IMG/VR virus record: IMGVR_UViG_3300009839_000001
Source: a virus
Strand: one strand, 5' to 3'
DNA length: 37,415 nucleotides
Part shown: one piece after another, positions 22,891-37,415 of the stretch
How positions within the stretch are numbered: position 1 is the first letter of the stretch
Layout: each line of letters starts with the position of its first letter
Made by a program: the position numbers and the translations under genes
Notes under the pieces: generated by a model
Told to the model about the DNA's origin: nothing
Databases searched by the model: none
The model's input: only the letters and a program-made list of their open reading frames with translations

Positions 22891-23103
22891 TCAATGTTTC
22901 TTCACGACTTGGTTCGCCATCAGGTAGAAGAGCGCGAGGAAGCCGATCAACCAAACCGCATAGCTCCCATAGATCGCGCCAGGCGAAGGCAGATTGAGCT
23001 GCTGTGCATCAGGATCGTTCTGCGGATTCGAGTAGAGATAAACCTGGGGCAGCTCACTCGGATCACCGTCTCTGAGTGTCACGTACACGATTAGTCCATC
23101 CAC
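22891..23103 (-). CDS. Small tail-anchored membrane protein (last gene of the minus arm)
   Basis: 70 aa. GTG start 23103 overlaps the SLT gene; alternative GTGs at 23088 and 23082. C-terminus YAVWLIGFLALFYLMANQVVKKH. Confidence 0.45.
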   Translation of the reverse strand: MDGLIVYVTLRDGDPSELPQVYLYSNPQNDPDAQQLNLPSPGAIYGSYAVWLIGFLALFYLMANQVVKKH

Positions 23104-23669
23104 CAGAGCAAGAGCACGGCGCCGCCGATGACCAGGCCAGCGACGAGATCAATATTCAGGTTTGGCGTGGCAAGGTTCCCCAAGATATCGGCGGAAGAGA
23201 TCTGCGGACCGGCGTCAGTGCTGCCAGGCGGACTCGATTGCATCTGGTCGAGACCGGCGTTATAGACCGTGCTGATCCCGAGAATCCCTTTCACGTAGTT
23301 CACGACTTCACCCGGCCACGAAGTGCCGGCCGCGGTCGCGTTGTCCACGTTTCCACCGCCCCAATTGTAGGCAGCAAGCGCGAGATCCCAGGATCCGTAC
23401 TTTTGATAGAGCTGTTTGAGGAACGTCACTCCACCCTGGATGTTCTGATTGACGTCATTGGGATCGACGCCGAGTTGTGCGGCTGTTGCGGGCTCGAGCT
23501 GCATCACGCCGATCGCGCCGGCGGAACTCACGAGGACCGCGCCGCTCGGTCCCCACTGACAGACACCCGATTCAGTTCGAGCGACGGCGAGCGCGATTCC
23601 CGGATCCACACCTTGCCGGTTCGCTTCGTCGATGATCAGACTCGAGAGATCAACTTTGCACGCAGCCAT
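23091..23669 (-). CDS. SLT-family lytic transglycosylase with C-terminal membrane anchor
   Basis: ARTESG (catalytic Glu-Ser), AGAIGVMQLEPATA, ALAAYNWGGGNV. C-terminus VAGLVIGGAVLLLWWMD. Confidence 0.85.
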   Translation of the reverse strand: MAACKVDLSSLIIDEANRQGVDPGIALAVARTESGVCQWGPSGAVLVSSAGAIGVMQLEPATAAQLGVDPNDVNQNIQGGVTFLKQLYQKYGSWDLALAAYNWGGGNVDNATAAGTSWPGEVVNYVKGILGISTVYNAGLDQMQSSPPGSTDAGPQISSADILGNLATPNLNIDLVAGLVIGGAVLLLWWMD

Positions 23670-23684
23670 TTGTTCGCAACCCTA

Positions 23685-25634
23685 TCAATAGCCGATAGCG
23701 CTGAATTCGATCACGTCACCGGCAGTGATAGCGACGGCAACCGTAAGCGTGCAGCTCGTCGTCGATGCAGATGTGCCGATAATGATGTCGAGAGGATGGG
23801 TGATGTCGGAAGCGTCGCAGTGCCAGCCATGAGGCGCCGTTGCCAAATTGCCCATCGTGATCACGGTCGAGCCTGAAGTGACGGTGGCTGTGGTGAACTT
23901 GCCTGCGGTCGCACCCCCGACCAGAGTGGTTTCATCCAACCCGCCGCTTGACGTGAAAGCTATTCCGCCGGCGATGGTCGTCGAGTAAGTGAGCCAGCCC
24001 GTATTGCCGGTGCCCGTGGCTTTCAGCCACATCGTTCCACCGGCCGCTCCATCTTGCTGTGCGTAAAAGGAACCGACCGCTGCAGCGAGCACACCGTTTG
24101 GGGAGCCTGTGCCCGAGTACCAGCCGTCTTTGAGCGTGTATGGAGCCGCGCCAGCAGCGGCATGTCCGATGAAAGAGTTCGCCGCAGCACTGCTCGTGAC
24201 GACGAGCGGTACCAATCCTGAGGTGACGATGCCGTAGCTGTTCGTCACGTTCGCCGTGGGTGCGGATGCATTGATCGTTGTCCAATTTGTAACGAGCGCC
24301 CCACCGGAAAAGCTCCCGGCGTCCTGCATGAAACCAATATAATTCGTAACCAAAGACCCGCCCGAAAACGTCGGATTGAAACCGAGCACGCCAATCATGT
24401 TGAGGACGTATGCACCATTCACAGCGCCGTTTCTGAACTTGATTCCGTTGCTCTGCCCGACTTCGACCGCGACTAGCGGAGTTCCTGTCGACGTCGCAGT
24501 GCCCGTGGTGTTCGTCACACTGATGGTTGTCGCGTTGCTGCTTACTACCGTGAAAACTCCGTTGTTTCCCGTCGCGCCACCGGTATAGCCACTGATCAGA
24601 ACTGAGTCACTGGCCCAGCCGTTCGACGCGACTAAACCAGGTTGGGAAGATGTGAAAGTGTAGACCCAAGTGTTGCCGCTGGGATTGGTGGGGGCGACTG
24701 AGGCATTGATGGTGATCGTGCCCGAGACCTGAGCAAAGAATTCCGCCGCCTCCGTCTGCCCGATATTCGGAGCGGTGTAAGCGTTTCCCGTGATGGCTTC
24801 ATTGACCTGAAAGCCGTCATAGTTAGCCCCGGTACCTTGCGACGCATCGCTTTCTAGATAGATATTCAGGCCCTTTCGAAGATTGTTCTGAGTAGAACTA
24901 CCGATATTCTGCAAAACGAAGCTATTAAAGATGGCGGTGCATCCCGCATCGGTCGCAACATAACTAGTCAGTGAACTACAAGGCGATTGCCACACATTGA
25001 GTCCGCCAAGCGTAGAAGTTGTAATTGTCTGCACTGTCGATGGGGTAAGCGAAACGGTGCCGCTCGATGGAGCACTGGTACTCAAATCCGCGACGAATGC
25101 ACCGTTCTGGCGCAAGATCAGATGTGAGGAATTCGAGCTCTGCACTTCGTTCTGCAGCGTCAGATTCAAGCCGGAGAGATTGACCGGGTTCACAGTGTAC
25201 GCGCTCGTGGAGTTCGACTGATCGCTCACGATGGTGCCTGGGGCCTGTGCCGTGGCCACGGCGCATGCACAGGCCCCGGAGGGCTGCAGAGGTGTCAACG
25301 TTTTCAGAAGATCGAAGGTGAGTCCGCCGATCGGGACCTGAGGTGTCACCGTCACATAATTCGTGACGCTGAGAGTGCTCGGCGCCTGACTCGCAACGAA
25401 CGGGCCAGCCAGGGCAGACTGCCCGACGAGATAGTTGACGACAACCCAATAGTAGATCGTCTGCGGTCCATTCCCTACCGTGCCCACGGTCGCGACCGTC
25501 GCCCCGTATGCCGGCGCCGGATTGAGGGTGAAGACCGGCATCGTGATCTGTTCGGTGTTGATCGGATTGGTTTGTGCGATCGTGGCGATCGAGAGAGCGA
25601 GTGTCAAGAGAAAACTTGCAAGAGTTTTTTTCAT
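23685..25634 (-). CDS. Secreted spike/adhesin-like protein, paralog A (649 aa)
   Basis: ATG 25634 follows GGAGGT. Signal-like MKKTLASFLLTLALSIATIAQ. The N-terminal ~190 aa is homologous to 25651-27057. Thr/Ser/Gly-rich with almost no charged residues. Ends ..IEFSAIGY. Confidence 0.6.
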   Translation of the reverse strand: MKKTLASFLLTLALSIATIAQTNPINTEQITMPVFTLNPAPAYGATVATVGTVGNGPQTIYYWVVVNYLVGQSALAGPFVASQAPSTLSVTNYVTVTPQVPIGGLTFDLLKTLTPLQPSGACACAVATAQAPGTIVSDQSNSTSAYTVNPVNLSGLNLTLQNEVQSSNSSHLILRQNGAFVADLSTSAPSSGTVSLTPSTVQTITTSTLGGLNVWQSPCSSLTSYVATDAGCTAIFNSFVLQNIGSSTQNNLRKGLNIYLESDASQGTGANYDGFQVNEAITGNAYTAPNIGQTEAAEFFAQVSGTITINASVAPTNPSGNTWVYTFTSSQPGLVASNGWASDSVLISGYTGGATGNNGVFTVVSSNATTISVTNTTGTATSTGTPLVAVEVGQSNGIKFRNGAVNGAYVLNMIGVLGFNPTFSGGSLVTNYIGFMQDAGSFSGGALVTNWTTINASAPTANVTNSYGIVTSGLVPLVVTSSAAANSFIGHAAAGAAPYTLKDGWYSGTGSPNGVLAAAVGSFYAQQDGAAGGTMWLKATGTGNTGWLTYSTTIAGGIAFTSSGGLDETTLVGGATAGKFTTATVTSGSTVITMGNLATAPHGWHCDASDITHPLDIIIGTSASTTSCTLTVAVAITAGDVIEFSAIGY

Positions 25635-25650
25635 CGAAATAACCTCCAAA

Positions 25651-27057
25651 TTAGTCACCGATCGCGATCCATCTCACGTTGACCGGATCGTTGATGATGG
25701 CACCAGCTTGGGCGGAAATTGTCACGGTGAATACATGCGTGGATAGAGTGTTAAACGTAGCCCATCCCCACTGATTTCCGCTTGCGTCAGTCGCAGCATC
25801 CAAACTTCCGGTGATCGTGAAGACTGCGGTCGGGAAAGTTAATGGAAAGCTGGCGGTAAGCGATGCCGTCGAGGATCCAGTTGAGAATGTTCCTATAGTT
25901 CCCCACTCGATGATAGTGCTACCGATCGTCAGTGATCCGCTCGCCGCGGTTAAACAGCCGGAAGTCGTCGCGCCGTGATTCGCGTCGGTGCAGAGGGGTA
26001 AAGATATTCCGGAACCGATCGTTCCAGCGGTTAGCACTGCCGGATCCGTGCCCTGCGTCGTGGAATAGCTTGGAGCGCCAGGAGATCCGGTGAGATTTGC
26101 GAAGACAGAATTTGCCGGCGCATTCGAAAGAAGGAAACTGAGCGCCGGTGTCGTCGTCGGAGTCGCAACGCTCGTCGTGAAGAGCGGTGACAAAGTACCT
26201 GCACTGAAACTGCTCACCGTATTAGAGCAACCTACTGTTGTCGCTCCGCCTGTGGCATCTCGGCAAAAAACATTTCCCTTACCGCCGCTGCCATCAGCGC
26301 TCAGCACCGCGGTATCCGTGCCCTGCGTCGTGGTATAGCTCGGAGGGGCAGGAGATCCGGTGAGATTCGCGAACACAGAATTCGCCGGCGCATTCGAAAG
26401 AACGAAACTCAACGCGGGCGTCGTCGTCGGAGTCGCAACGTTCGTCGTGAACAGTGGCGAGAGAGTCCCGGCACTGAAAGTCGTGAGCGTTCCAGTGATA
26501 CTCAGATCTCGAACGAAGACACCATTCTGCCGCAAGATCAGATGGGAGACGCCGGCGCTCTGGCCTTCGTTCTGCAGCGTCATGTTCAGTCCGGAAAGGT
26601 TGACGGGATTGACGGTGTAAGGGCTCGTCGAATTCGATTGATCGTTCGTGACGGTGCCAGGCGCGACACCTGTTGCCACGGCACAAGCGCATGCGCCACT
26701 CGGTGCGATCGGCGTAGACGTTTTCAAAACGTCGTACGAAGCGGGGAAGGCGGGAAACGTGGGATTGATCGTGACGAAGTTCGAAACCGACAGCACATTC
26801 GGCGCATTGCTAATCGGAAACGGTCCGGCCAGATTCGCACTGCCCACGAGGTAATTTGCCGAAATCCAGTAATAGATCGTTTGCGGTCCAGGATTTCCGC
26901 TGAGCGCGATCGTGGCACCAGAAGCCGGTGCCGGATTCAACGTGAACACCGGCAAAGTGATCTGCTGAGTTGTGACTGGATTCGCCGGTACCTGCTGTGC
27001 AATCGCAACTGCGACTAAGCTTGCAAAGACCAGGAAGCCGATAGTGAGTTTTCGCAT
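25651..27057 (-). CDS. Secreted spike/adhesin-like protein, paralog B (468 aa)
   Basis: ATG 27057. MRKLTIGFLVFASLVAVAIAQ. Shares PVFTLNPAPA..GPQTIYYW..PSGACACAVAT..DQSNSTS.YTVNPVNLSGLN.TLQNE..SHLILRQNG.FV.DLS with paralog A. Ends ..VRWIAIGD. Confidence 0.6.
   Translation of the reverse strand: MRKLTIGFLVFASLVAVAIAQQVPANPVTTQQITLPVFTLNPAPASGATIALSGNPGPQTIYYWISANYLVGSANLAGPFPISNAPNVLSVSNFVTINPTFPAFPASYDVLKTSTPIAPSGACACAVATGVAPGTVTNDQSNSTSPYTVNPVNLSGLNMTLQNEGQSAGVSHLILRQNGVFVRDLSITGTLTTFSAGTLSPLFTTNVATPTTTPALSFVLSNAPANSVFANLTGSPAPPSYTTTQGTDTAVLSADGSGGKGNVFCRDATGGATTVGCSNTVSSFSAGTLSPLFTTSVATPTTTPALSFLLSNAPANSVFANLTGSPGAPSYSTTQGTDPAVLTAGTIGSGISLPLCTDANHGATTSGCLTAASGSLTIGSTIIEWGTIGTFSTGSSTASLTASFPLTFPTAVFTITGSLDAATDASGNQWGWATFNTLSTHVFTVTISAQAGAIINDPVNVRWIAIGD
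25939..26478. repeat. Intragenic tandem duplication, 2 x ~270 bp (90 aa)
   Basis: Protein segments FSAGTLSPLFTT(N/S)VATPTTTPALSF(V/L)LSNAPANSVFANLTGSP..PSY.TTQGTD.AVL occur at aa 194 and aa 284. They are mirrored by the look-alike shadow ORFs 26090-26338 and 26360-26620. Confidence 0.85.
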
Positions 27058-27065
27058 GTTACACC

Positions 27066-27356
27066 TCAGTGTTTCAAAACCATTCTCAGTAACTCGATCA
27101 CGACGACACCGAGAAACGATGCCGCTGCGCTCGTCGCCCACAACTTCAATTTGATTGAACTCCTACTCCGTTCGAGCGCGCGGATCTTCTCGTGCGCCTG
27201 GTGGACGTCGAACTCTGCTTTTCCTGCCTTCTCTTCCACACGAGTGCGGAGCAGAGCGAGATCGACGGTTCGTTCCTTCCCTTCCCGCTCGAGCCGGTCG
27301 ATCTCCCGTAAAACAAAAAGCCGTTCCTCGCGCCACTCGCCCGAAGTGTCAACCAT
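27066..27356 (-). CDS. Coiled-coil tail-anchored membrane protein (holin/spanin-like role possible)
   Basis: 96 aa. Charged helical N-terminal part. C-terminus AAASFLGVVVIELLRMVLKH. Confidence 0.55.
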   Translation of the reverse strand: MVDTSGEWREERLFVLREIDRLEREGKERTVDLALLRTRVEEKAGKAEFDVHQAHEKIRALERSRSSIKLKLWATSAAASFLGVVVIELLRMVLKH

Positions 27357-27757: not shown

Positions 27758-28591
27758 TCAAAACGTCTGATAGACGGGTGCGAGCGCCACGCTCACATAG
27801 GCATTGGTCGTCGTCGTGTTCGTGAAACACAACGAATTTCCGGTCGTTCCTGAGAACAAAGCGCCGACGCCGCTCCCCTGAGATAGATCCGGGAGTGTGC
27901 CCGCATAAATATCAATGACCCACACAGCCACAAGCCCGGTACAGGAACTGGGAGAAGTGCTCGACTGGAACTCGATGAAACCAGATGAGGGAGCCGCTCC
28001 GAAACTGACGATATATGAACAAACACGAATCGTGCTGTTCGAGACTCCCCCGAAAAGCTGAAGCGTGGTACCGGCATTAACCGGGAACTGCGCTGATTGA
28101 TTACACACCGTAGGTGCGGTCGCTCCAATTCCTGATTGTCCAGTTGGTGAGAATGAGATGGGACCGGAAGAAGCGTTGTAAGTGGCCACGATCGTATTAA
28201 TCGATGCGGTCATCACGGAACGAATATTTTGATAGTACCCACCTGCCTGCAAAATCGCACACCCTGAGAGTGGCGTAGCGATATAGCTCGAAAATGCGAT
28301 CGGAATCCAGTTTGTTGCCCCGTCGTAACTCTCCTCGATATCCACAGTTCCGGTGAAATTTCCACCTGACGAACAGTAGGAAAGCCAGTGGGCGGACTGG
28401 CCTACATTGTTGAAGATCTGTGAAACGCCGGCGGTGTAGACGGCTTTCTGCGAGACCGTGAATGTGCCCGTCGTGCCGGCGTTCTGCGCGAAGACCGGCG
28501 CCGGACTAAATTCGCGCATGACACCCGCACCAATGGCGAGCGCGCACGTTAGAGCGACGCAAATCCAGAAACCCTTGAGAGAAGCTTTCAT
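27758..28591 (-). CDS. Secreted beta-rich structural protein
   Basis: Start set at ATG 28591 (ATGA overlap with the upstream stop): MKASLKGFWICVALTCALAIGAGV, then a Thr/Ser/Gly-rich body. Confidence 0.55.
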   Translation of the reverse strand: MKASLKGFWICVALTCALAIGAGVMREFSPAPVFAQNAGTTGTFTVSQKAVYTAGVSQIFNNVGQSAHWLSYCSSGGNFTGTVDIEESYDGATNWIPIAFSSYIATPLSGCAILQAGGYYQNIRSVMTASINTIVATYNASSGPISFSPTGQSGIGATAPTVCNQSAQFPVNAGTTLQLFGGVSNSTIRVCSYIVSFGAAPSSGFIEFQSSTSPSSCTGLVAVWVIDIYAGTLPDLSQGSGVGALFSGTTGNSLCFTNTTTTNAYVSVALAPVYQTF

Positions 28592-29256
28592 TGGAGAACT
28601 CCCTTGCCCGAGGTATTCGTTGCCTGGATCAGTGGATAAGTCCATCCGTGGAATCGCGCCGCAGTTCTCGTGCCCACCGGCATCGGAGGTTGCGCGGCCG
28701 GTACTTCGGCCGTGACCTGCACGATATCTCGCTCATGGAGACGGAAGACGAAATCGTTCGGTTGCGCATAGGTTGCGACCTGGGAAGTCAGATCGTTCAA
28801 TCCATCGATCCCGCCGCCATTGATCAGCACGCGCCAGATCACATTGCCGGTCCCATCAGGCGGATTCCCGCCCACGTGGACGATCGCTAGTTTGGTGATC
28901 ACTGCGAGCTGCCCTGCTGGCACGACGTACTCGATCACGTCGATCGGTCCGGCGCCGGGCGCGGGATATGCGGGGAACGGATTCGGCGTGATGATAAAGG
29001 GGAGGGAATCTGCCGGAGGATTGAAAAGCGAGATAGCGCGGTTCATGAACGATGGACCGGAGAGTGCCGTCTTCACTCGCGACGACATGGAAAGTTTTTG
29101 GGCATCAGTCCAGGGCTGGCCAGCAATGTTCGGATTCGCCCACGAAGACACCGGCGGAGGTGAGGGTGAGCACACACTCACTCCGTTCTGCACTACGCAC
29201 GTGTCACCGAGACGCAACCGCGGAGGAACATAGGACAAAACTCTTCGCATCGTCAT
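28588..29256 (-). CDS. Structural protein carrying the family N-terminal tag (no C-terminal anchor)
   Basis: MTMRRVLSYVPPRLRLGDTCVV parallels MSYLVVPSSLGDTCTI of 2573-3439. Beta-rich C-terminal half. ATGA overlap with the M15 gene. Confidence 0.6.
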   Translation of the reverse strand: MTMRRVLSYVPPRLRLGDTCVVQNGVSVCSPSPPPVSSWANPNIAGQPWTDAQKLSMSSRVKTALSGPSFMNRAISLFNPPADSLPFIITPNPFPAYPAPGAGPIDVIEYVVPAGQLAVITKLAIVHVGGNPPDGTGNVIWRVLINGGGIDGLNDLTSQVATYAQPNDFVFRLHERDIVQVTAEVPAAQPPMPVGTRTAARFHGWTYPLIQATNTSGKGVLQ

Positions 29257-30834: not shown

Positions 30835-30836
30835 GA

Positions 30837-31505: not shown

Positions 31506-31512
31506 CGCTCCG

Positions 31513-31689
31513 TCACTTCGCCGCTGGGATCGAATCGGCTGCCTTGATTAGACCGATCCCGGTTGGAATTCCAGTCGTCAGAGCGGCAACACCGGTGCTG
31601 GTCTGCCCGTGCAAGAATGCGAGCCCGGCTCCTGCAAGCGCGCCCACGATCGTGAGCACGCCCGCCAAAGTTGTTTTCCAGTCCTTCAT
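31513..31689 (-). CDS. 58-aa membrane protein (holin-like size; trimmed from ORF 31513-31782)
   Basis: ATG 31689 is preceded by GGAAGG: MKDWKTTLAGVLTIVGALAGAGLAFLHGQTSTGVAALTTGIPTGIGLI... Confidence 0.55.
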   Translation of the reverse strand: MKDWKTTLAGVLTIVGALAGAGLAFLHGQTSTGVAALTTGIPTGIGLIKAADSIPAAK

Positions 31690-31750
31690 TGCAACCTTCC
31701 GATCACGCTTCGTGTGGAACACACACAAATTTGTTGTGTGTGTTCCCAGA

Positions 31751-32230
31751 TTAGCTTGCGCTGCCGTCGTCGAGCTCGACACCGATAAAGTTCAGACGGA
31801 TCGTGTTCGGGTTGCCGCTGATGTCGGTGAAGTCGGCCAGGATCGATCCGCGGCGCTCGAAGACGAACGGCGTGAGCAGTGGGAAAGGATTCTGTGCAGT
31901 TCCCATAATGTTCGAACTGTGAACCTGCTGGTTTGAAAACGGCCGTTTGTTCCGAGAGTCTTTGATCAGCACCGTGAAGGCCCCGGTCGAGATTCCTGCG
32001 AGGAGCATCCACCGGAAAGAGCGATCGAGGATCTGAACCGAGAAATTGTTTGATTGCCCACCGCCGGCGAGCACGAGCGGACCCATCTCGTAGCTGAAGA
32101 ACAATCCGGGATCGAACTTCTCTCCGGATCCTTCACACATGGGGCACTTCTGAACTCCGCCAGGCGTGTTGACAGCGCCTTGGCCTGCGCAACCCGGGCA
32201 AGGTGTTCCCGTCTTTTGTGCCATCGCCAA
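31751..32230 (-). CDS. Zinc-finger (2 x CxxCxGxG) plus beta-rich domain structural protein
   Basis: CPGCAGQG and CPMCEGSG at the N-terminus. The C-terminal FSVQILDRSFRW...PFPLLTPFVFERRGSILADFTDISG..IRLNFIGVE resembles a jelly-roll pattern (inference). Confidence 0.55.
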   Translation of the reverse strand: MAMAQKTGTPCPGCAGQGAVNTPGGVQKCPMCEGSGEKFDPGLFFSYEMGPLVLAGGGQSNNFSVQILDRSFRWMLLAGISTGAFTVLIKDSRNKRPFSNQQVHSSNIMGTAQNPFPLLTPFVFERRGSILADFTDISGNPNTIRLNFIGVELDDGSAS

Positions 32231-32323: not shown

Positions 32324-33046
32324 TTACTGCACGCCGCGGTATAGTTCGCCGTCCAGGATCACGTACACGGTCGTTCCGACGCCGTTCGGACGCGAAGCAG
32401 CCGCCGAGAAGTTGAATGCAGTCTCCGGGTTCAGCGTGAAGCTGAAACCTTCGCCGCCTTCAATTACGATGGGCTGATTGAGCGTAAAAACGGACCGGGG
32501 ATCGGGTACGCCGTTGCTGGTCGAAACAAACTGCACGTCACCAACGGCCACGGTGCCGAGCTCGGCTGCCGAGTAGGCAATCGCGCCACGGCCGGCGGTC
32601 AGGTTCAGTGCCGGGCACTCGAGCATCGGCTTTTTGCCGACAGTCAGGGTGCACGAAACGTTCTGCAGGAAGTTCACCAGGTCCACGGGCGCGGTATTGT
32701 TGGCGAAGAACAGGGCAATGGCGCGGATAACCAGCTTCTGCGGTTGCTCGAGCTGGCCGGCCTTCGTCATGTACGTCTGTGCCAGTGTCTTTCCGCCCTG
32801 CCCAATGGGAGTTTGGAAAAGCACCGTTTTCGCCATCGCAGCCGCCTGCGCGAAGCTCACGGAGTCATAAACGGGTTGGTTGATGACTTCCATCAGATTC
32901 GCCACGAGCGGGTTTTTGCCGGATACCTTCGGCATGCGACCAAAGTTGAGCGGTGCCAGGAGCGAGGGATCGAATCCCTCTCCCCGGACTGCTCGCCCGA
33001 GCTGCGCGTATCGATCAAACCTTTCGATCTGTAAACGAGAAATCAT
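32324..33046 (-). CDS. Putative major capsid protein (beta-rich; inference only)
   Basis: 240 aa from ATG 33046 (GTG 33058 is also possible). Alternating beta-strand-like pattern: LFQTPIGQGGKTLAQTYMTKAGQLEQPQKLVIRAIALFF...VYVILDGELYRGV. Placement is central in the late arm. Confidence 0.35.
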   Translation of the reverse strand: MISRLQIERFDRYAQLGRAVRGEGFDPSLLAPLNFGRMPKVSGKNPLVANLMEVINQPVYDSVSFAQAAAMAKTVLFQTPIGQGGKTLAQTYMTKAGQLEQPQKLVIRAIALFFANNTAPVDLVNFLQNVSCTLTVGKKPMLECPALNLTAGRGAIAYSAAELGTVAVGDVQFVSTSNGVPDPRSVFTLNQPIVIEGGEGFSFTLNPETAFNFSAAASRPNGVGTTVYVILDGELYRGVQ

Positions 33047-33125
33047 TGTGAATCGCACCTGCTTTCTGGAGAAAATTTGTGCCGCGGAACCTCTCCGGAG
33101 ATCCGCGGGCTAAACTTTCGTCGAG

Positions 33126-33800
33126 CTAGAAACGGGACGCGAAACGAGACAGCCCGGCCGGAACTCCCGGCTGAACTGAGACGCTCGGAGCAGCGGATGC
33201 ACCAGGCGCTAATGTGGCGCCGGTCGGTGATCCTGCTGGACCCCATGAGTACCCTGCGGGCACACTCAGGTAATTCCCGTTCTGTGCGCTCACTGTGGGC
33301 AGCGGGAAGCCGGACTGAATGTAAGCTCCGAGTCCATCGCTCGAGAAGTCGAGGTCTCCCAGATAGCCGGTGAGGGCCGCTGGTGAAGTCCCTGACACTT
33401 TCTCGCTCCACAGTCGCATGATCACAGCCGAGAGGCCGCCTGCCGCGACACCGCTTGCGATCTCGCGTCCGGCGAACTTGGCTGCTGCCCAGGCGAGTGC
33501 AATCGCAGTCGCGATATTCGCTGCATAGCCCATGGCTCCGGTGTTCTTATCACCGAGGATGGTCTGAGTGAGATATCGAGTACCGATCGCACCGCCGGCT
33601 GCACCGATTCCGAGCTGGAAAAGCTCAGTCCCGCTGAAACCGCCGATCGACGGATTGCGACGACGACGCCTGCTGTTCATGCGGTAATGACGCCGGCTGC
33701 GCGAACGCGCAAACAGCGGATTCCGAGAATGACGCCGGTTCCGTTGTTTTGGTGCGTAGTGATGGCGGTTCCGACGTGTCTTTTTCTTTGGGTTCGTCAT
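33126..33800 (-). CDS. Arg-rich N-terminus plus Gly/Ala hydrophobic domain protein
   Basis: ATG 33800 follows GGGAGGGGG. MTNPKKKTRRNRHHYAPKQRNRRHSRNPLFARSRSRRHYRMNSRRRRRNP, then GIGAAGGAIG...ATAIALAWAAAKFAG... Confidence 0.6.
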   Translation of the reverse strand: MTNPKKKTRRNRHHYAPKQRNRRHSRNPLFARSRSRRHYRMNSRRRRRNPSIGGFSGTELFQLGIGAAGGAIGTRYLTQTILGDKNTGAMGYAANIATAIALAWAAAKFAGREIASGVAAGGLSAVIMRLWSEKVSGTSPAALTGYLGDLDFSSDGLGAYIQSGFPLPTVSAQNGNYLSVPAGYSWGPAGSPTGATLAPGASAAPSVSVQPGVPAGLSRFASRF

Positions 33801-33952
33801 GACGAATAGCTCACCCCCTCCCAATGTGTTTCGTTTTCTCGTGCGCCGGGCACGGCGCGCGGTAGTTCGTGAACTCTTTTGGCGCTTCTTCTGAGGATTC
33901 ACCAGGCGGACAGTTCGCATCGTGGGCATGCTCGAAAAGCTCCGTAAAATCA

Positions 33953-33996
33953 AACACCCCCCAGGAAACGGGGAGATCCCGCTCGTGGGGGGTGTT
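33953..33996 (-). terminator. Hairpin with 10-bp G/C-rich arms followed by a T-rich tract on the minus strand
   Basis: aacacccccc ... ggggggtgtt (perfect arms, 24-nt structured loop). The minus strand continues TGATTTTAC. It lies in the 273-bp gap 33801-34073. Confidence 0.35.
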
Positions 33997-34073
33997 CACA
34001 ATTTCGCTTCAAGTGATTAGATGGTCTGCAAAGGCTTGGGTCGCAAACCGGCGATGACGATCTTTCTTGTCAC

Positions 34074-34964
34074 TTACGATCGTAACGTCAGAACTCCACC
34101 GAACATGAACATGTGGGGATTCGATTCGAGATCTTCCCGCTCGATCAGCATCGCCAGGTACTGCCCGTTCGAATCCGGCGTCACATCGTAGACTTTCGGC
34201 GGAGTGCCTTCACCGCCGACTGAATCGACCGCGAAGCGCACGAGCGGACCGAGTGCGACCATTTCTCCAATCCGCGCGTTCACGAACTCGGCGATCTCCT
34301 GGGGGATCTCCCGGTGCGCGAACTTCGATCCTTTGCACTCGCTGCAGCTCGGCTCGCGATAGTTTGTGCTTCCGCCCCGGATCCCGGTCGGACGTTTGCC
34401 CGTTCCACGGCAAACTGAGCACATTGCTTTGCCAGTGCCGGCGCACACCTTGCACTCTTGAGTGCCGACGAAGATCCCGGTGCCGTGGCAGAGATCACAC
34501 TGAGGGTTGCGTTCGCCGAGCCCGCCGTTCAGACAGTCGTCTCCAGGACAAATCACCGAGGGAATGGGCACGCGCCCGGCGCCGCCGCACTTGTAAGCCT
34601 CGCAGAGCTTCTTTCCAGTCGCACCGCAGATATCGCAGTCGGAGAGACATGCTTTGCAGAATTCTTCGGTATCGTCCCATCGTGCCGGAATCCCCTGCCA
34701 TGGAGTTGTAACGATCAGTTGCTCACTTCCGGTTGCGAAAGCGAGCACGGGACCATCTTTCCGGAAGTCGATCGTCTTAGTTCCTTCCGGTCGAACGATC
34801 TGCGCTCGAGAGAGCCGGCCAAGAATTCGGAAATCGCCGCGGCGTTCGATCTCCCGGAGTTGAGTAAGAAACGTGCTGAGGGCTTCGATCGGTGCGCTCA
34901 CAGGCGGTACATTGACTGAGCTCGAATTCGATCGGCGCGCGCGCCGTGTGACAACATCAGGCAT
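34074..34964 (-). CDS. Protein with a DnaJ-type cysteine-rich zinc-finger array
   Basis: CDICGATG, CDLCHGTG, CKVCAGTG, CSVCRGTG and CSECKGSK occur within about 110 aa, matching the CxxCxGxG motif of the DnaJ CR domain. Confidence 0.7.
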   Translation of the reverse strand: MPDVVTRRARRSNSSSVNVPPVSAPIEALSTFLTQLREIERRGDFRILGRLSRAQIVRPEGTKTIDFRKDGPVLAFATGSEQLIVTTPWQGIPARWDDTEEFCKACLSDCDICGATGKKLCEAYKCGGAGRVPIPSVICPGDDCLNGGLGERNPQCDLCHGTGIFVGTQECKVCAGTGKAMCSVCRGTGKRPTGIRGGSTNYREPSCSECKGSKFAHREIPQEIAEFVNARIGEMVALGPLVRFAVDSVGGEGTPPKVYDVTPDSNGQYLAMLIEREDLESNPHMFMFGGVLTLRS

Positions 34965-34980
34965 TTTCGGAGCTCCTGTT

Positions 34981-35286
34981 TTAGTGCCGCGGACGCCGGC
35001 GAGTTATTGTTTCGATCGGTTGGCCATCGGGCGGTGCCGGCTGCGCGCCCGGAACTTGCCCGCCGAACATCAGTTTCAGGAACATGTCTTTCTCGGCGTC
35101 ACCCTTCTTCGCCATCTCGCGTCTGAACTCGATATCCTCACGGCAGAGTTGTGCGTTCTCACGTTGCTGGTCAATCCCAGCCTGCGCCATCTTCAAAGCC
35201 TCAGCCTGGTAATCCCGGAGCGCTTCGAGTAGATTTCCGATGCGAGTCAGAGCGCTATAGATCGTTCCATCTTCGAGATCTGCCAT
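34981..35286 (-). CDS. Coiled-coil protein (scaffold-like; inference)
   Basis: 101 aa, charged and helical. TGATG overlap with the upstream gene. Confidence 0.5.
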   Translation of the reverse strand: MADLEDGTIYSALTRIGNLLEALRDYQAEALKMAQAGIDQQRENAQLCREDIEFRREMAKKGDAEKDMFLKLMFGGQVPGAQPAPPDGQPIETITRRRPRH

Positions 35287-36365
35287 CAGTTTACGATCCC
35301 TTCCGGTTTCACGACGTAGGCGCCGCCGACGAGGTGAATCCGTTTCTTTCGCCGATCGTACACCACTCGTGGGCGCTCGCCTGTTTCCTCTCCGAGATCA
35401 TGCCAGTATTGGACCGGCTGAAAATTGTCAAATTTTTTCTGAGTGAAGTACTCGACCTGGTACGCAAACCCCAGGTCGAGCAGATCTTTATCCGCACGGA
35501 TCGGGAGCTTCTCGATCGATTCGTCGAGGTTCTGACTCCCACCGATAATGTAGAGTTGCCGTCCGCCAGGCTCGGCTGCGAGATCCGGAGCTTCTCTAGA
35601 TCCCCACTCGATTTTCTTGACCCAAGGCGGATCCGCGTCTTTGTCACCGATGGTAAGAGATACGAGCTTGCCGAGTTGTGCAAGCTCGTGATGATCACCG
35701 TAATCGGCAATCGGCAGTCCGGTGTCAGTCACGCGTGCAGGCCCCTTGCCATGGAATTTACTGTACAGCTCGGTTGAGTCAGCATAGTTGCGCCGGCGCG
35801 CGTTCTTCCTCGCATGGCGGTGCTTTCGTGGATTGAGACTCTGAGCAGCATCTTCGGCATCACGCCGTTCGGGAAACACACGACTCATTCGACCCGTCCG
35901 GCTCCTGGCGCGCCAGCCTCCGGGCACTTTGATCACTGGATTCTTGGTCGCGGTTTTTAGTTCCTGCGCTTTTTTCACGACTTCGGAGAACTGCGCAGTG
36001 GTTAGTTGCTTGACCGATTTTCCTGGATATAGCGACCGCAACGCTTCATGGAAAAGTGTTGTGTCGCGGTTCTCGTTCCGTTTGGACAGAGATTTGATCT
36101 TCCCGGTCAGTCGATGGAACGCGCCTTTCGCATAGGTACCGAGCTCCATGATGTGACCCTTCACCCTCGCAACTGTTCGCCCGTGCGGATTGCGCGTCAG
36201 CACGCTGTATCTGGGACCGCTGCGAAACCAGAGTGTTTTGATGAAGGCCCCAGGGATCGAGCGTTCTTTCTTCACCGCGTCGGCTTTCTCGGTGAACGCA
36301 CCGTGGAAGTTGAACAGATCCCCCTGGCCGTAATTCTTTCGCGTTTTGGCTTTTCGGCGCTGCAT
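35286..36365 (-). CDS. Hypothetical structural-arm protein, basic N-terminal half
   Basis: 359-aa ORF. The C-terminal ..YQVEYFTQKKFDNFQPVQYWHDLGEETGERPRVVYDRRKKRIHLVGGAYVVKPEGI looks like a conserved small phage domain that I cannot name with confidence. Confidence 0.65.
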   Translation of the reverse strand: MQRRKAKTRKNYGQGDLFNFHGAFTEKADAVKKERSIPGAFIKTLWFRSGPRYSVLTRNPHGRTVARVKGHIMELGTYAKGAFHRLTGKIKSLSKRNENRDTTLFHEALRSLYPGKSVKQLTTAQFSEVVKKAQELKTATKNPVIKVPGGWRARSRTGRMSRVFPERRDAEDAAQSLNPRKHRHARKNARRRNYADSTELYSKFHGKGPARVTDTGLPIADYGDHHELAQLGKLVSLTIGDKDADPPWVKKIEWGSREAPDLAAEPGGRQLYIIGGSQNLDESIEKLPIRADKDLLDLGFAYQVEYFTQKKFDNFQPVQYWHDLGEETGERPRVVYDRRKKRIHLVGGAYVVKPEGIVN

Positions 36366-36477
36366 AGAGCCTCATTGCTGCACGTAAGTCAGAACAAATT
36401 TGTTGATTGGCGTCGTGCCACCCATCCAGGCTGCGACCGTGAGATCGAGCGGAAGTTTGAAATATCGCTGCACTCAT

Positions 36478-36678
36478 TCATCCCTTTTTCGAATAGATGG
36501 GCACGAGCTGTGAGTTCGATCCCATCGCCAAGTGCTTCTGAAATCCAAGAGCCTGCCACAAGAACGTGAACGGCTTGCTCTGCAGCTTTCGCCGGCCACA
36601 TTGGTACACGACGCGGTACCCGGTGATCGTGCCGAGTTCCGTCGTCGATCCGTCACTATTGACCGCGAGAAAAGCCAT
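36478..36678 (-). CDS. Hypothetical 66-aa protein
   Basis: High third-position GC when hand-translated. The ATG lies in copy 1 of the 99-bp repeat. Confidence 0.5.
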   Translation of the reverse strand: MAFLAVNSDGSTTELGTITGYRVVYQCGRRKLQSKPFTFLWQALGFQKHLAMGSNSQLVPIYSKKG

Positions 36679-36871
36679 TCGCGAGTTAGATCACTTTCAC
36701 CCTTCGGCCAGTGGCGCGCCGGAGGAAGCGACCGAGTGTGCGTTTCTGTTTCGCGTTGAGCGAGAGGTTCAAGCCATTCGCGAGTTAGATCACTTTCACC
36801 CTTCGGCCAGTGGCGCGCCGGAGGAAGCGACCGAGTGTGCGTTTCTGTTTCGCGTTGAGCGAGAGGTTCAA
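36674..36871. repeat. Perfect tandem duplication, 2 x 99 bp
   Basis: gccattcgcgagttagatcactttcaccc...cgcgttgagcgagaggttcaa is read twice back to back (36674-36772 and 36773-36871). Confidence 0.95.
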
Positions 36872-37297
36872 CTGCAACTCCCGCCGCCGTGCGTTCCGTT
36901 TCACACGCCGCTTCACCGCGCGTTTCTTCGTCTTTTTCTTCGCCATGGTGTTCCTCTCCCGTCGCCCAAGCTTGGCGATCTCCCTCAAAACTTTTTCCTC
37001 GCGCAACCGCTCCGCTTGAGACATTGGCATCCCCATTCGTGGAGTAGAACGTTGCGTGGCCTTTCGCGATTGCCGGTGTGCGCTCACGCGCGTTCGCTCC
37101 GGTACCATGGCCGGATGAAAACTGAACAGCGGATTGGTTTTCGTTTTCTTCACAAATCGACACGTTCCGCAACTGAACTTTTTTGCAGCGCCCGGCCGTA
37201 ACTGAAAAAAGTTGCAGCAGCCGAGATCACTGCTCACTCCACCGGATACCGCAACGATCTGGCAGTCGGCGTCTTTTTTCGCGCCGAGCAGTTCCAT
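36785..37297 (-). CDS. Very basic hypothetical protein; start lies in the terminal repeat
   Basis: This frame has higher GC3 than the overlapping 36474-37172 frame. ATG 37297 (MELLGAKKDADCQIV...); the ORF stays open to GTG 37384. C-terminus KKKTKKRAVKRRVKRNARRR... Confidence 0.45.
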   Translation of the reverse strand: MELLGAKKDADCQIVAVSGGVSSDLGCCNFFQLRPGAAKKFSCGTCRFVKKTKTNPLFSFHPAMVPERTRVSAHRQSRKATQRSTPRMGMPMSQAERLREEKVLREIAKLGRRERNTMAKKKTKKRAVKRRVKRNARRRELQLNLSLNAKQKRTLGRFLRRATGRRVKVI

Positions 37298-37415
37298 GTA
37301 TCCGGCTTCCCGTACACTCTTCACGCGAGGCCTGCGATCATCTTGCGAACCTCTGACGCGCACGAGCGAACATCGCGGCCGCACGCCGCCGAAGATTCCC
37401 GATATCGCACTCGCA
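37293..37415. repeat. Direct terminal repeat, copy 2 (identical to 1-123)
   Basis: Same 123 bp as the window start. Confidence 0.95.

Follow-up and report, generated by a model that had tools for sequence, protein, structure and literature searches.

The window, the whole stretch of 37,415 nucleotides analysed here, is a complete circular genome. Its ends overlap by 123 bases, and the same element was assembled in two other metagenomes into contigs of 37,419 bp that begin at other positions, from which one circular genome of 37,292 bp was deduced. An arm of minus-strand genes crosses the junction and runs on to 5117. We counted 22 genes in 22891-37297 and eight in 46-5117, with intergenic gaps of mostly -32 to +17 nt, consistent with an earlier interpretation of the letters alone (hereafter, the sequence-only reading), which described about 30 co-oriented, tightly coupled genes. 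A 232-aa ORF at 36474-37172 was judged spurious, the real genes there being 36478-36678 and 36785-37297, and an ORF at 27146-27352 was dropped in favour of 27066-27356. Searches of Pfam, PHROGs and NCBIfam matched only a transglutaminase-like protein, an M15 peptidase, an SLT transglycosylase, a PAS domain and a tail-fibre-like C-terminus in the arm. The element integrates into tRNA-Met, and two features of the plus strand concern this step:

7774..9012 (+): tyrosine integrase (Pfam Phage_integrase, E 1.6e-9)
9697..9734 (+): attP core, a 38-bp exact match to a host tRNA-Met gene

In the related locus L044, the integrase adjoins the provirus end; the provirus end adjoins tRNA-Met, with host genes beyond. 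Related proviruses are present in Terriglobales contigs and chromosomes, and all genome matches (11/11) were Terriglobia or Acidobacteria MAGs. The circular genome, the integrase, the tRNA-Met attP and these proviruses counter the possibility that the arm is a non-viral surface or secretion module, which would have refuted the sequence-only reading. Relatives are also found in IMG/VR. Many related contigs measure 33-45 kb, and several close ones ~35-40 kb; this recurrence suggests a unit genome size. The core set across ~45 related loci consists of the transglutaminase, the C-domain of a 359-aa protein, an Arg-rich membrane protein, a jelly-roll protein and two further beta-domain families. 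The lineage, suspected from the outset to be undescribed, is unrecorded in 50,697 GenBank phage records, PLSDB, Pfam, PHROGs, NCBIfam and the full-text literature searched.

The central gene of the arm for our argument encodes the jelly-roll protein:

32324..33058 (-): candidate major capsid protein, 244 aa, likely start at 33046 (AlphaFold and Foldseek)

The AlphaFold model (pLDDT 79.6) is a beta-sandwich of ~9 strands, in which a single jelly-roll core begins at about residue 52; the N-terminal arm is disordered and ends in an invariant K-N-P. When the model was compared with the PDB by Foldseek, the best match was the capsid protein of Sulfolobus polyhedral virus 1 (SPV1; 6oj0_Z, E 3.5e-5; also 6oj0_A), followed by SH1, HHIV-2, P23-77 VP17 and plant-virus coats (tymovirus, satellite-virus). 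The top matches are viral capsid proteins with a probability of 1.0, and the matches also include cellular folds (Ena fibres, BxpB, C1q/TNF). In BFVD there were 31 matches at E<=1e-3, and capsid or coat proteins are the majority among the described ones. TM-scores against SPV1 are modest (0.31-0.47), and in profile searches the sequence resembled none of the solved capsid proteins. The homologues form 94 clusters, every one "hypothetical", and the capsid-family profile matched ~1,975 clusters at 50% identity, all unannotated. The predicted fold of the 244-aa protein is a single jelly-roll of viral-capsid type, and, judged from the model, its nearest structural neighbours are those of membrane-containing tailless viruses. 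It should be kept in mind that cellular proteins also have jelly-rolls.

Further candidates for shell and assembly proteins lie on both sides of this gene:

35286..36365 (-): 359-aa hallmark protein (HMM, alignment, AlphaFold)
34981..35286 (-): charged helical protein of 101 aa; its gene separates that of the 359-aa protein from the zinc-finger gene
34074..34964 (-): 296-aa zinc-finger protein with 16 Cys and repeated DnaJ-type CxxCxGxG motifs
31751..32230 (-): 159-aa protein with an N-terminal CxxC...CxxCxGxG zinc knuckle and a ~120-aa beta domain
29831..30382 (-): 183-aa paralogue of the 159-aa protein's beta domain (hhalign, alignment)
28588..29256 (-): 222-aa protein; ...RLGDTC...VCS motif at the N-terminus, C-domain conserved and beta-rich
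27758..28645 (-): 295-aa protein, beta-rich, whose N-terminus is a signal peptide or anchor; likely start at 28594

The 359-aa protein has a basic N-terminal part of modular build, in which R/K-x-N-P linkers connect small domains. Its C-terminal beta domain (~170 aa, ending ...LVGGAYxVKPEGIVN) is highly conserved and is the sole part common to 34 homologues of 270-627 aa; the HMM matched in nearly all related loci, at times as the C-terminus of 600-740-aa proteins. The AlphaFold model is multi-domain (pLDDT 78.8) and has no fold match in the PDB (best E 0.12), including any portal, HK97 or terminase structure. The sequence-only reading had named several proteins in which a jelly-roll might be found; of the two modelled, the 244-aa protein has one, whereas the 359-aa protein gave no match. 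Because only these two were modelled, a double jelly-roll or another capsid fold among the 159-, 183-, 222- and 295-aa proteins is not excluded. The 159-aa and 183-aa families are related (hhalign probability 97%, E 6e-11), and distant relatives carry two to three tandem copies of this beta domain per protein. The 159-aa protein, which has no structure model, is a candidate second capsid or penton protein. The C-domain of the 222-aa protein forms the C-terminus of ~570-590-aa proteins in distant relatives, and its HMM has matches in most related loci. The 295-aa and zinc-finger proteins are kept in closer relatives; the latter aligns with the N-terminus of the 159-aa protein (hhalign 86%) and the C-terminus of the 359-aa protein (57%), and is a candidate assembly chaperone or cement protein. 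The 101-aa protein, whose syntenic counterpart in L001 is a 73-aa gene, is possibly a scaffold, a function that is only inferred.

Extremely basic proteins are also neighbours of the capsid gene:

33126..33953 (-): Arg-rich membrane protein, 267 aa, likely start at 33929
36785..37297 (-): 170-aa protein (called as a gene on the identical contig)

The first 93 residues of the Arg-rich membrane protein include 35 R/K and four N-P-basic motifs, which are conserved in the family alignment, and are followed by a Gly/Ala-rich hydrophobic domain. It was found in almost every related locus, and we propose that it is a DNA condenser tethered to the membrane. In the 170-aa protein, 23 of the last 53 residues are R/K (MAKKKTKKRAVKRRVKRNARRR...), and this basic C-terminus is kept in L001. 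All the Cys-rich, zinc-finger and Arg-rich/hydrophobic proteins listed by the sequence-only reading are present (34074-34964; 33929-33126).

The arm also encodes membrane proteins, spikes and hydrolases:

4284..5117 (-): transglutaminase-like (papain-fold) protein with a C-terminal anchor (Pfam Transglut_core, E 1.2e-7)
223..4249 (-): block of six membrane proteins (hydropathy, motif comparison)
30466..31782 (-): three small helical or membrane proteins (31513-31782, 30837-31505, 30466-30834)
29253..29663 (-): M15 peptidase (Pfam Peptidase_M15_3, E 1.9e-15; PHROG 894 "endolysin", E 8e-32)
27066..27356 (-): 96-aa coiled-coil protein with a C-terminal anchor (TM scan), kept in L001 and L002
25651..27141 (-): spike or receptor-binding protein 1, real start Met29 at 27057, with a signal peptide and a conserved N-terminal domain
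23685..25658 (-): spike or receptor-binding protein 2, with a signal peptide, the same N-terminal domain and a different C-terminal part
23091..23669 (-): SLT lytic transglycosylase, anchored in the membrane by its C-terminus (Pfam SLT, E 1.5e-18)
22891..23103 (-): 70-aa tail-anchored protein, the final gene of the arm

A hydropathy scan found C-terminal hydrophobic anchors in 4284-5117, 3443-4249, 1738-2562, 1374-1733, 223-747, 27066-27356, 23091-23669 and 22891-23103, and one in 2573-3439 was seen by eye, giving nine. At least ten had been claimed. In 765-1235 the scan found an internal hydrophobic segment; with a second segment visible by eye, this is a polytopic membrane protein. In five proteins of the block (223-747, 1374-1733, 1738-2562, 2573-3439, 3443-4216), the N-terminus carries the motif M-x-Y-[VIL]...(R)RR-x-L-G-D and the C-terminus an anchor with basic residues at the end; motif and anchor recur in L001, L002 and L011. 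The transglutaminase-like gene, the first of the arm, has candidate catalytic Cys, His and Asp residues and belongs to the core genes of the group as a whole; most related loci have it, among them the compact L022. The three small proteins are poorly conserved: 31513-31782 has one TM, 30837-31505 an N-terminal TM and Ala-rich helices, and 30466-30834 is Ala-rich. Two spike paralogs with signal peptides had been predicted, and indeed both open with a Sec-type signal peptide (MKK/MRK, a hydrophobic stretch, AxA-Q) and are 63% identical across the first 188 residues (E 2e-72). The C-terminus of spike 1 is tail-fibre-like (Pfam Gp53-like_C, E 2.8e-7); in relatives, spike 2 keeps the N-domain and varies in the C-terminal part. 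Given their classical Sec signal peptides, the spikes and the 295-aa protein would be on the periplasmic face. Such peptides on spikes fit poorly with a shell built in the cytoplasm around an internal membrane. The two peptidoglycan hydrolases expected in the arm are the M15 peptidase, a probable endolysin, and the SLT enzyme; the 96-aa protein is possibly a lysis or fusion accessory.

No terminase, portal, HK97 capsid or other tailed-phage hallmark was detected when the proteins were scanned against Pfam, PHROGs and NCBIfam, and neither these searches nor the two structure models revealed the diverged set that would have overturned the sequence-only reading. A double jelly-roll or A32-type ATPase was not detected in any profile library searched. 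A six-frame scan of the whole genome for the P-loop pattern [AG]xxxxGK[ST] gave one match inside a real gene, AYLKAGKT:

6027..7526 (+): 499-aa conserved early-arm protein bearing a non-conserved Walker-A-like string, the only one in the genome

This protein has no Pfam, PHROG, NCBIfam or PDB-sequence match, and besides it only the two spikes exceed 420 aa in the genome. Across the 26 homologues of the 499-aa protein, the G-K-T is not retained. Scan and homologue comparison thus found no conserved P-loop anywhere in the complete genome, and none in a convincing Walker-A context was found within +/-10 kb of the module in ~45 related loci, so that the FtsK/HerA packaging ATPase is missing, as had been stated. 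A stand-alone FtsK gamma (DNA-binding) domain (14274-14540, Pfam E 2.5e-15) is encoded in the early arm, with recombination genes around it. In the distant relatives L019 and L021, a HerA/FtsK-like (HerA/DUF87-like) ATPase is encoded 6-10 kb from the capsid gene, so ATP-driven packaging may exist in part of the wider group; this ATPase is not tied to the module, since in nine other contigs no capsid gene lies within 10 kb of the HerA-like homologue. Against the explanation favoured below, a host ATPase could be used for packaging.

We infer, without virion data, that the minus arm is a virion and lysis module. Our preferred explanation, which we hold with rather better than even confidence, is that the element is a temperate, tailless, lipid-containing virus of Terriglobales (soil Acidobacteria) with an SPV1-like virion, i.e., a jelly-roll shell and no packaging motor; there are no particle, lipid or proteomic data. 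The archaeal virus SPV1 combines a nucleoprotein core and an inner membrane with a single-jelly-roll shell; its genome is circular dsDNA, without a packaging ATPase (PMC8459092; PMC8812541). The likeness lies in the capsid fold and in the absence of a packaging ATPase from both. The jelly-roll fold, the anchored proteins and the missing ATPase support the membrane-containing, non-tailed (or pleomorphic) virion that the sequence-only reading had envisaged, while the particles, their lipid and their icosahedral or pleomorphic shape are inferred, not shown.

An enveloped or pleomorphic virion, which we consider unlikely, would form at the cytoplasmic membrane, where the cytoplasmic N-terminal domains of the tail-anchored proteins are bound by a nucleoprotein that may or may not have a jelly-roll nucleocapsid; this nucleoprotein would bud into or be wrapped in the periplasm, acquire an outer membrane with Sec-delivered spikes, and be freed from the wall by the SLT and M15 enzymes. 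The signal peptides on both spikes and the 295-aa protein, kept in relatives, agree with this, as does the tail-anchored topology, in which the Arg-rich tail and the conserved N-terminal motifs face the cytoplasm, where the DNA is; moreover, without an ATPase there is no DNA translocation across a closed internal membrane. However, neither spike is anchored at its C-terminus, the closest folds are those of capsid proteins that form the shells of internal-membrane viruses, and the presence of several more beta-domain proteins points to an icosahedral shell with multiple components. We also know of no dsDNA phage of a diderm host that buds into the periplasm. An internal-membrane virus of PRD1/PM2 or sphaerolipovirus type, whose ATP motor comes from the host (e.g., FtsK) or is an unrecognisably diverged protein, has only a slim chance of being correct: the absence of a P-loop from the complete genome, and of any in a convincing Walker-A context from ~45 related loci, the nine HerA-like contigs without a nearby capsid gene and the lack of a double jelly-roll or A32-type ATPase in any library all speak against it. 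The FtsK gamma domain could be cited in its favour, but the position of the gene fits Xer or resolution functions. There remain the ATPases in L019 and L021, the weaker fold matches to SH1, HHIV-2 and P23-77, and the many virion-type membrane proteins with an anchored transglycosylase, which we take to resemble PRD1.

It is also improbable that the element is no virus at all, but a satellite or integrative mobile element. Its "late arm" would then be a cell-envelope or secreted module of membrane proteins, wall hydrolases, secreted beta-rich proteins and jelly-rolls that act as lectins or adhesins. Cellular carbohydrate-binding and fibre proteins do have jelly-rolls, some of them among the matches, several arm proteins have signal peptides, and a packaging or replication NTPase is absent. 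Yet the top fold matches are viral capsid proteins, the contig size recurs among relatives, which also occur in IMG/VR, the spike ends in a C-terminus of phage tail-fibre type, the hydrolases belong to endolysin and virion types, and extremely basic proteins stand beside the capsid gene; profile searches of the genome found no conjugation, secretion-system or plasmid-partition genes. A tailed phage with terminase, portal, HK97 capsid and tail genes diverged past recognition is scarcely credible. Absent matches are weak evidence, since most arm proteins have no database match, but there is no P-loop for a terminase, the capsid candidate is a jelly-roll, the 359-aa model resembles no portal, HK97 or terminase structure, and only the two spikes and the matchless 499-aa protein have the size of a portal, tape measure or tail sheath. 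The nine to ten tail-anchored membrane proteins in the structural module are unlike Caudoviricetes.

In the SPV1-like virion that we favour, the jelly-roll protein would form a shell coupled to a lipid membrane, with the 159/183-aa beta-domain pair and the 222-aa protein as candidate pentons or further capsomer subunits. The tail-anchored proteins would insert in the membrane and may be docked to the shell by the N-terminal M-x-Y-V...RR-x-LGD motif that they have in common. DNA would not be pumped in; instead, Arg-rich proteins would condense it, namely the 267-aa protein through its four N-P-basic motifs, the 170-aa protein through its 53-residue basic tail and the 359-aa protein through its basic linkers, and shell and membrane would assemble around the condensed nucleoprotein, as proposed for SPV1. 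The membrane-anchored transglutaminase/papain-fold protein may mature or cross-link virion proteins. The spikes would bind the host, the anchored SLT enzyme would open the cell wall at entry, and the M15 peptidase and small membrane proteins would release progeny. The element represents a large virus group that is undescribed in the databases and literature searched.

The minus arm, the proposed virion and lysis module, was described in the sequence-only reading as about 30 tightly coupled genes that continue through the junction to 5117, and this observation on the arm as a whole was confirmed, with gene calls that needed minor corrections. The arm has 30 curated genes, 22 in 22891-37297 and 8 in 46-5117, and most gene junctions lie between -32 and +17 nt. 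The curated minus-arm proteins gave only five Pfam matches. At least ten C-terminally anchored (tail-anchored) membrane proteins had been claimed; nine were found, eight by a hydropathy scan and one by eye.

4284-5117, minus strand: Transglut_core (Pfam); C-terminal anchor (hydropathy scan)
3443-4249, minus strand: C-terminal anchor (hydropathy scan)
2573-3439, minus strand: C-terminal anchor (by eye)
1738-2562, minus strand: C-terminal anchor (hydropathy scan)
1374-1733, minus strand: C-terminal anchor (hydropathy scan)
223-747, minus strand: C-terminal anchor (hydropathy scan)
29253-29663, minus strand: Peptidase_M15_3 (Pfam)
27349-27744, minus strand: PAS (Pfam, PAS_4 E 3.9e-6)
27066-27356, minus strand: C-terminal anchor (hydropathy scan)
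25651-27141, minus strand: Gp53-like tail-fibre C-terminus (Pfam)
23091-23669, minus strand: SLT (Pfam); C-terminal anchor (hydropathy scan)
22891-23103, minus strand: C-terminal anchor (hydropathy scan)

For the arm, the only additions from PHROGs were families for endolysin and transglycosylase and two whose function is not known, and NCBIfam gave no match for ten core proteins that were searched. The two peptidoglycan hydrolases that had been proposed were recovered by Pfam as the M15 peptidase and the SLT protein. The two spikes (25651-27141 and 23685-25658, both minus) are indeed paralogues, their N-terminal 188 residues being 63% identical (E 2e-72), and both have a classical Sec signal peptide, as does the 295-aa beta-rich protein (27758-28645, minus).

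Flanked by the 295-aa protein and the spikes, the PAS-domain gene lies within the structural arm, an unusual position for a sensor domain, and its protein is kept in three related contigs (L001, L002 and L014). The tail-anchored protein of 2573-3439 contains (GQG)n, encoded by a 9-bp repeat at 2925-2985, and is also rich in Gly, Cys and Pro.

Terminase, portal, HK97 capsid, tail tube and tape measure had not been seen in the ORFs, and none of them had a Pfam, PHROG or NCBIfam match (most small proteins were not modelled). As regards the large terminase of Caudoviricetes, the sole Walker-A-like string in a gene is not conserved. For HK97 capsid and portal, the model of the 359-aa hallmark protein (35286-36365, minus) resembles neither, and the 499-aa protein (6027-7526, plus) had no match; only the 244-aa and 359-aa proteins were modelled. 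Tail tube, tape measure and baseplate had no profile match save the tail-fibre-type C-terminal domain on one spike, nor is any long, helical ORF large enough to be a tape measure. A diverged tailed phage can in effect be ruled out, and the non-tailed part of the proposed membrane-containing, non-tailed virion stands; its membrane is inferred.

A six-frame scan found [AG]xxxxGK[ST] within a real gene only once, in the 499-aa protein (AYLKAGKT). This string was rejected as a P-loop because the consensus in an alignment of 27 family members is LKxGxxTL, so that G-K-T is not conserved. With this sole match removed, the genome has no convincing Walker-A P-loop, and an FtsK/HerA packaging ATPase is absent from the complete genome by six-frame scan and Pfam searches, both as previously stated. 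Within 10 kb on either side of the module, the core virion gene set around the capsid gene, about 45 related loci also have no P-loop in a convincing Walker-A context. The exceptions are two contigs, L019 and L021, in which a HerA/DUF87-like gene lies 6-10 kb from the capsid gene, on the opposite strand and beside a resolvase; none of the remaining related loci has a HerA-like gene within its span of 10 kb on either side.

L019 16984-18045, minus strand: HerA/DUF87-like P-loop ATPase (Pfam E 3.5e-9), adjoins a serine recombinase
L019 18366-18737, minus strand: truncated HerA/DUF87-like copy
L034 (contig) 10001-11002: HerA/DUF87-like P-loop ATPase

Nine other contigs bear homologues of the HerA-like gene with no capsid gene within 10 kb. 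Because of this, the gene was not counted in the module; this and its absence from the remaining loci led to the rejection of the L019 and L021 ATPase as a packaging enzyme for the group in general. The gene may stem from the capture of a packaging or partition ATPase, and its presence may point to a lineage that gained a motor.

The major capsid candidate is the 244-aa protein (32324-33058, minus). It has 94 homologue clusters, none of which is annotated; where homologues have a taxonomic label, it is Terriglobales or Acidobacteria, and contigs of 34-40 kb hold many of them. In its AlphaFold model (pLDDT 79.6, 62-sequence alignment), some 50 disordered residues form an arm in front of a beta-sandwich of about nine strands with one helix. 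When the PDB was searched with Foldseek, the top two matches were SPV1 chains (E 3.5e-5 and 3.8e-3, probability 1.0), followed by satellite panicum mosaic virus, SH1, HHIV-2, tymoviruses and P23-77 VP17; TM-scores against SPV1 were modest (0.31-0.47). BFVD gave 31 matches at E<=1e-3, of which the described ones are mostly capsid or coat proteins. A profile search of solved structures with the capsid family revealed no sequence-level similarity. We conclude from the model that the 244-aa protein, first called at 32324-33046 and suspected of a jelly-roll, is a single jelly-roll of capsid type with SPV1 as its best match; homology with SPV1 versus convergence is open. The capsid-family profile matched 1,975 clusters at 50% identity, 669 of them at E<=1e-10, among 1.84 billion representative proteins, and tblastn of the candidate against GenBank phages and PLSDB gave no match.

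In the relatives (tblastn and HMM searches; 21, then 23 further loci), the jelly-roll protein recurs in a core set of six, with the transglutaminase-like protein, the C-terminal domain of the 359-aa protein, the Arg-rich membrane protein, the 159-aa-type beta domain and the 222-aa-type domain. In addition, the zinc-finger and 295-aa proteins, the spikes and SLT are common to the closer relatives. The core set is kept in distant IMG/VR contigs of 44-61 kb with capsid identity of 23-32%, and a reduced set, without detectable 359-aa and 222-aa-type homologues, was found on a compact 16.8-kb contig with 68% GC. Three contigs of 11-17 kb (L022-L024; L022 has 68% GC) have the same order, namely transglutaminase, a 322-aa protein, Arg-rich protein, a 181-aa capsid protein and then small beta proteins, with integrase and SLT. 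These compact high-GC relatives suggest that the group may span much smaller genomes and other hosts.

The 359-aa protein consists of a variable N-terminal array of small domains with basic R/K-x-N-P linkers and an almost invariant C-domain. It could be modelled (pLDDT 78.8), but neither the suspected jelly-roll nor any other PDB fold match was found by Foldseek, and tblastn against GenBank phages gave no match. The 159-aa (31751-32230, minus) and 183-aa (29831-30382, minus) proteins are paralogues (hhalign 97%, E 6e-11). A relationship of this family with the 244-aa capsid protein is unsupported, as hhalign between the two families was not significant (probability 1.3%). The beta domain of about 120 aa, which is encoded by these two separate genes in the window, occurs as two to three tandem copies per protein in distant relatives, and by sequence these look like a duplication and fusion series.

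L018 11574-12467: tandem beta-domain protein
L016 11159-12016: tandem beta-domain protein
L019 15037-16287: tandem beta-domain protein
L021 14856-16883: tandem beta-domain protein
L021 17058-18215: tandem beta-domain protein

The Arg-rich membrane protein (33126-33953, minus) has 35 R/K within its first 93 residues and four N-P-basic motifs conserved across the family. Where domains meet in the Arg-rich, 359-aa and capsid proteins, there are conserved basic N-P motifs (R/K-x-N-P, N-P-K/R-K/R-K); in the capsid protein, the invariant K-N-P is exactly at the arm/core junction (N45 invariant, P46 nearly so).

33651-33929, minus strand: conserved basic N-P motif sites, Arg-rich protein
35286-36365, minus strand: conserved basic N-P motif sites, 359-aa protein
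32903-32911, minus strand: conserved basic N-P motif site, capsid protein

Eight of the nine occurrences of [RK]x(0-1)NP in the proteome are within the Arg-rich/359-aa/capsid gene block. By our own reasoning, without functional data, the motifs may be SPKK-like DNA-binding turns or processing/protease sites. Another motif is common to five tail-anchored proteins (223-4216, minus), whose N-terminus reads M-x-Y-[VIL]...(R)RR-x-L-G-D and whose anchor ends in K/R. The same motif and anchor were found in three related contigs.

L001 3355 and 4890: motif and anchor
L002 1575: motif and anchor
L011 4697: motif and anchor

The 222-aa protein (28588-29256, minus) has a related N-terminal ...RLGDTC...VCS motif, and it shares ...LGDTC...G..VCS with the 288-aa protein. 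The M-x-Y...LGD signature may be a docking or processing signal. PDB sequence and profile searches with the 359-aa protein, the 499-aa protein and the protein families A1-A4 gave nothing below E 0.02 and nothing relevant.

Among known viruses, SPV1 (Portogloboviridae) is, by analogy, the nearest working model. Its virion combines a single-jelly-roll outer shell with sub-capsomer and membrane proteins; a basic protein condenses its circular dsDNA, and a packaging ATPase is lacking (PMC8459092; PMC8812541). The window virus likewise has a circular dsDNA genome and numerous small membrane proteins, a capsid protein with a single jelly-roll and a strongly basic component of the DNA-condensing kind, and it too lacks a packaging ATPase and recognisable replication proteins (PMC8459092; PMC8812541). 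The extreme basic proteins adjoin the capsid gene, so the combination of circular dsDNA, basic proteins and no ATPase is present; that they wrap DNA is inferred. SPV1 alone has a hyperthermophilic archaeal (Sulfolobales) host and a 20-kb genome without integrase, and is non-lytic, whereas the window virus is bacterial (Terriglobales), 37.3 kb and predicted to be temperate with tRNA integration, and encodes an integrase and lysis enzymes. Its wall hydrolases, Sec-signal spikes, transglutaminase-like protein and 359-aa hallmark are absent from the profile text on SPV1 (PMC8459092). Profile searches with the window families revealed no sequence similarity to the SPV1 capsid and no solved-structure match, and what the model supports, with regard to the VP4/VP10-type single jelly-roll capsid proteins of Portogloboviridae, is a resemblance of fold, not demonstrated homology.

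Helvetiavirae / Singelaviria (P23-77, IN93, SH1, HHIV-2, SNJ1) are similar in being tailless with an internal membrane and single jelly-roll capsid, and some are bacterial and some temperate; weaker fold matches were obtained with SH1, HHIV-2 and P23-77 VP17, and a pair of small beta-domain paralogues flanks the window capsid gene region. Their signature genes encode a packaging ATPase of the FtsK/HerA type and, side by side, two jelly-roll capsid proteins (PMC8812541). In the window the ATPase is absent and the 159/183-aa pair has no detectable relation to the 244-aa protein. Of the two jelly-roll genes expected from Sphaerolipoviridae, Matsushitaviridae and Simuloviridae, one was found, and the 159-aa protein next to it and the 183-aa paralogue are beta-rich with no fold predicted. 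Tectiviridae and Corticoviridae (PRD1, PM2) are tailless bacterial viruses, and small membrane proteins account for about half of the proteins in their virions; besides a separate endolysin, PRD1 has a lytic transglycosylase (P7) that is bound to the membrane and associated with the virion, and PM2 has circular dsDNA. They differ in their 10-15 kb genomes, and in a double jelly-roll capsid and an FtsK/HerA ATPase, neither of which was found in the window. No Pfam or PHROG match indicates the double jelly-roll of Bamfordvirae, neither modelled protein (244-aa and 359-aa only) has such a fold, and no fold was predicted for the proteins of distant relatives in which the 159-aa beta domain is present twice in tandem. 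The FtsK/HerA (A32-like) ATPase expected of Bamfordvirae and Helvetiavirae is absent from the complete genome and about 45 related loci; a DUF87/HerA-like gene accompanies the capsid gene only in L019 and L021. The window does not fit the traits of Plasmaviridae and Pleolipoviridae (no capsid, spike with signal peptide and C-terminal anchor, budding without lysis enzymes): it has a predicted capsid-type jelly-roll, spikes with a signal peptide and no C-terminal anchor, and two wall hydrolases. The analogy with polyoma- and papillomaviruses is only mechanistic. They assemble a jelly-roll capsid around circular dsDNA condensed by basic proteins without a motor; these are eukaryotic viruses without a membrane that rely on host histones, and their sequences are unrelated.

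The window is a single circular genome of 37,292 bp, because its two ends share an identical 123 bases and two other JGI metagenomes yielded this element as contigs of 37,419 bp that begin at different positions; the end overlap is a circularity artefact of the assembler. GC is about 57% overall and falls to 0.50 at 19-20 kb, the site of a TnpB-like gene. The two arms are divergent, plus over 5333-22734 and minus from 5117 through the junction down to 22891. Besides a tyrosine integrase, DUF5131, RusA, an N4/N6 methylase and a Fis-type HTH protein, the plus arm encodes several unknowns, including the 499-aa protein, and the four genes listed here; the sole PHROGs match of early-arm proteins was DUF5131 / phrog_2045.

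14274-14540, plus strand: stand-alone FtsK gamma (KOPS-binding winged-helix) domain protein without motor domain (Pfam E 2.5e-15)
16679-17368, plus strand: pentapeptide-repeat protein; repeat at 16793-17136, about 23 copies of a 15-bp unit, 94% identity, ANLSG repeats
19416-20462, plus strand: TnpB / Cas12f-like gene (OrfB_IS605 and TNB domain), inside the low-GC patch
21194-21808, plus arm: serine recombinase downstream of the TnpB-like gene, a second recombinase besides the tyrosine integrase

The FtsK gamma protein may have a role in Xer recombination or recruit host FtsK, the pentapeptide-repeat protein may mimic DNA or act against defence systems, and the TnpB-like gene is probably an IS200/IS605-type insertion or cargo. 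A perfect tandem duplication of 99 bp (two copies, 36672-36871) spans the last ~29 codons of a basic-tailed 170-aa gene and the downstream spacer. It is probably real because the other two assemblies share the unique length; it could be a regulatory site or a recent duplication, and its function is unknown. Rfam and tRNA scans of the window found nothing, and promoter and terminator scans at the arm ends gave no signals above chance.

In a collection of species-representative genomes, the 11 matches were without exception MAGs of Terriglobia or Acidobacteria, and several of them lie on contigs 130-685 kb long. One related provirus, in a 294-kb contig of Terriglobales type (L044), stops at a tRNA-Met (14581-14656), about 1.6 kb past its integrase; host regulators and a phosphoesterase come next. 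The window has a 38-bp exact copy of the 5' part of this tRNA-Met, through the anticodon loop, in non-coding DNA downstream of its integrase.

9697-9734, plus strand: predicted attP core

Judged from sequence, this match is the attP/attB core, and the identity together with the provirus ending at tRNA-Met identifies the element as a putatively temperate, tRNA-integrating genome. The close relatives, and only these, were traced to Terriglobales genomes.

In kind, the element resembles viruses already known that have no motor, contain a membrane and use a single jelly-roll capsid, and there is a genuine chance that it is more than a variant of these; it is bacterial, temperate and nearly twice the size of SPV1. 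In the SPV1-like model, DNA would be condensed by Arg-rich proteins, and shell and membrane would be assembled around the nucleoprotein. Tail-anchored proteins would bridge shell and membrane via their common N-terminal motif, and the transglutaminase/papain-fold enzyme would mature or cross-link components. That the arm is instead a non-viral envelope module is unlikely, since the genome is a circular unit, the capsid-type fold and tail-fibre-type spike end are predicted, endolysin-type and virion-type hydrolases are present, and extreme basic proteins lie beside the capsid gene. The chief rival is that an envelope is acquired at the cytoplasmic membrane in place of an internal membrane; the Sec signal peptides of the spikes suit this better, which is the main tension of the SPV1-like model.

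A joint reading, which we hold only tentatively and consider doubtful as a whole, is that the element belongs to a bacterial branch of an ancient motor-less dsDNA virus lineage, possibly at realm level. Here, a jelly-roll shell and lipid membrane would assemble around a circular genome condensed by virus-encoded Arg-rich proteins, the papain/transglutaminase-fold enzyme would mature virion proteins at conserved basic-N-P junctions, and, given the Sec-delivered spikes, assembly or envelopment would finish at the cytoplasmic membrane. We know of no bacterial dsDNA virus that assembles in this way. Neither GenBank phages, PLSDB, Pfam, PHROGs nor NCBIfam has a record of the lineage, the arm had no megablast match among 50,697 phage records, and no prior description was found in the full-text literature; the gene families appear to have no detectable sequence relatives in reference databases. 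Few viruses of Acidobacteriota have been studied, and the isolates known to us are tailed.

It has been proposed that viruses with two jelly-rolls and an FtsK-like motor descend from a portoglobovirus-like ancestor that lacked a packaging ATPase and had a single jelly-roll capsid gene (PMC8812541). This hypothesis would become testable with a bacterial jelly-roll lineage that has no motor, and the relatives with duplicated or fused beta domains, two of them with a HerA-like ATPase, would belong to such a lineage. If the joint reading is true, the proteins with the small beta domain twice in tandem, and the HerA-like ATPase of two distant relatives, would be snapshots of two steps proposed for a Helvetiavirae-like origin, namely capsid-domain duplication and capture of a packaging ATPase. 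To our knowledge, the ancestor-like state has until now been represented by two archaeal species only. The finding also points to a coherent virus group, putatively temperate with integration into tRNA genes, beyond annotation by standard hallmark-based tools, which is apparently large (~1,975 capsid clusters at 50% identity). Six core profiles (transglutaminase, 359-aa C-domain, Arg-rich membrane, jelly-roll, 159-aa-type and 222-aa-type domain) could serve as markers for virus detection in soil metagenomes. In bacteria, this raises the tractable question of how 37 kb of dsDNA becomes enclosed without an NTPase.
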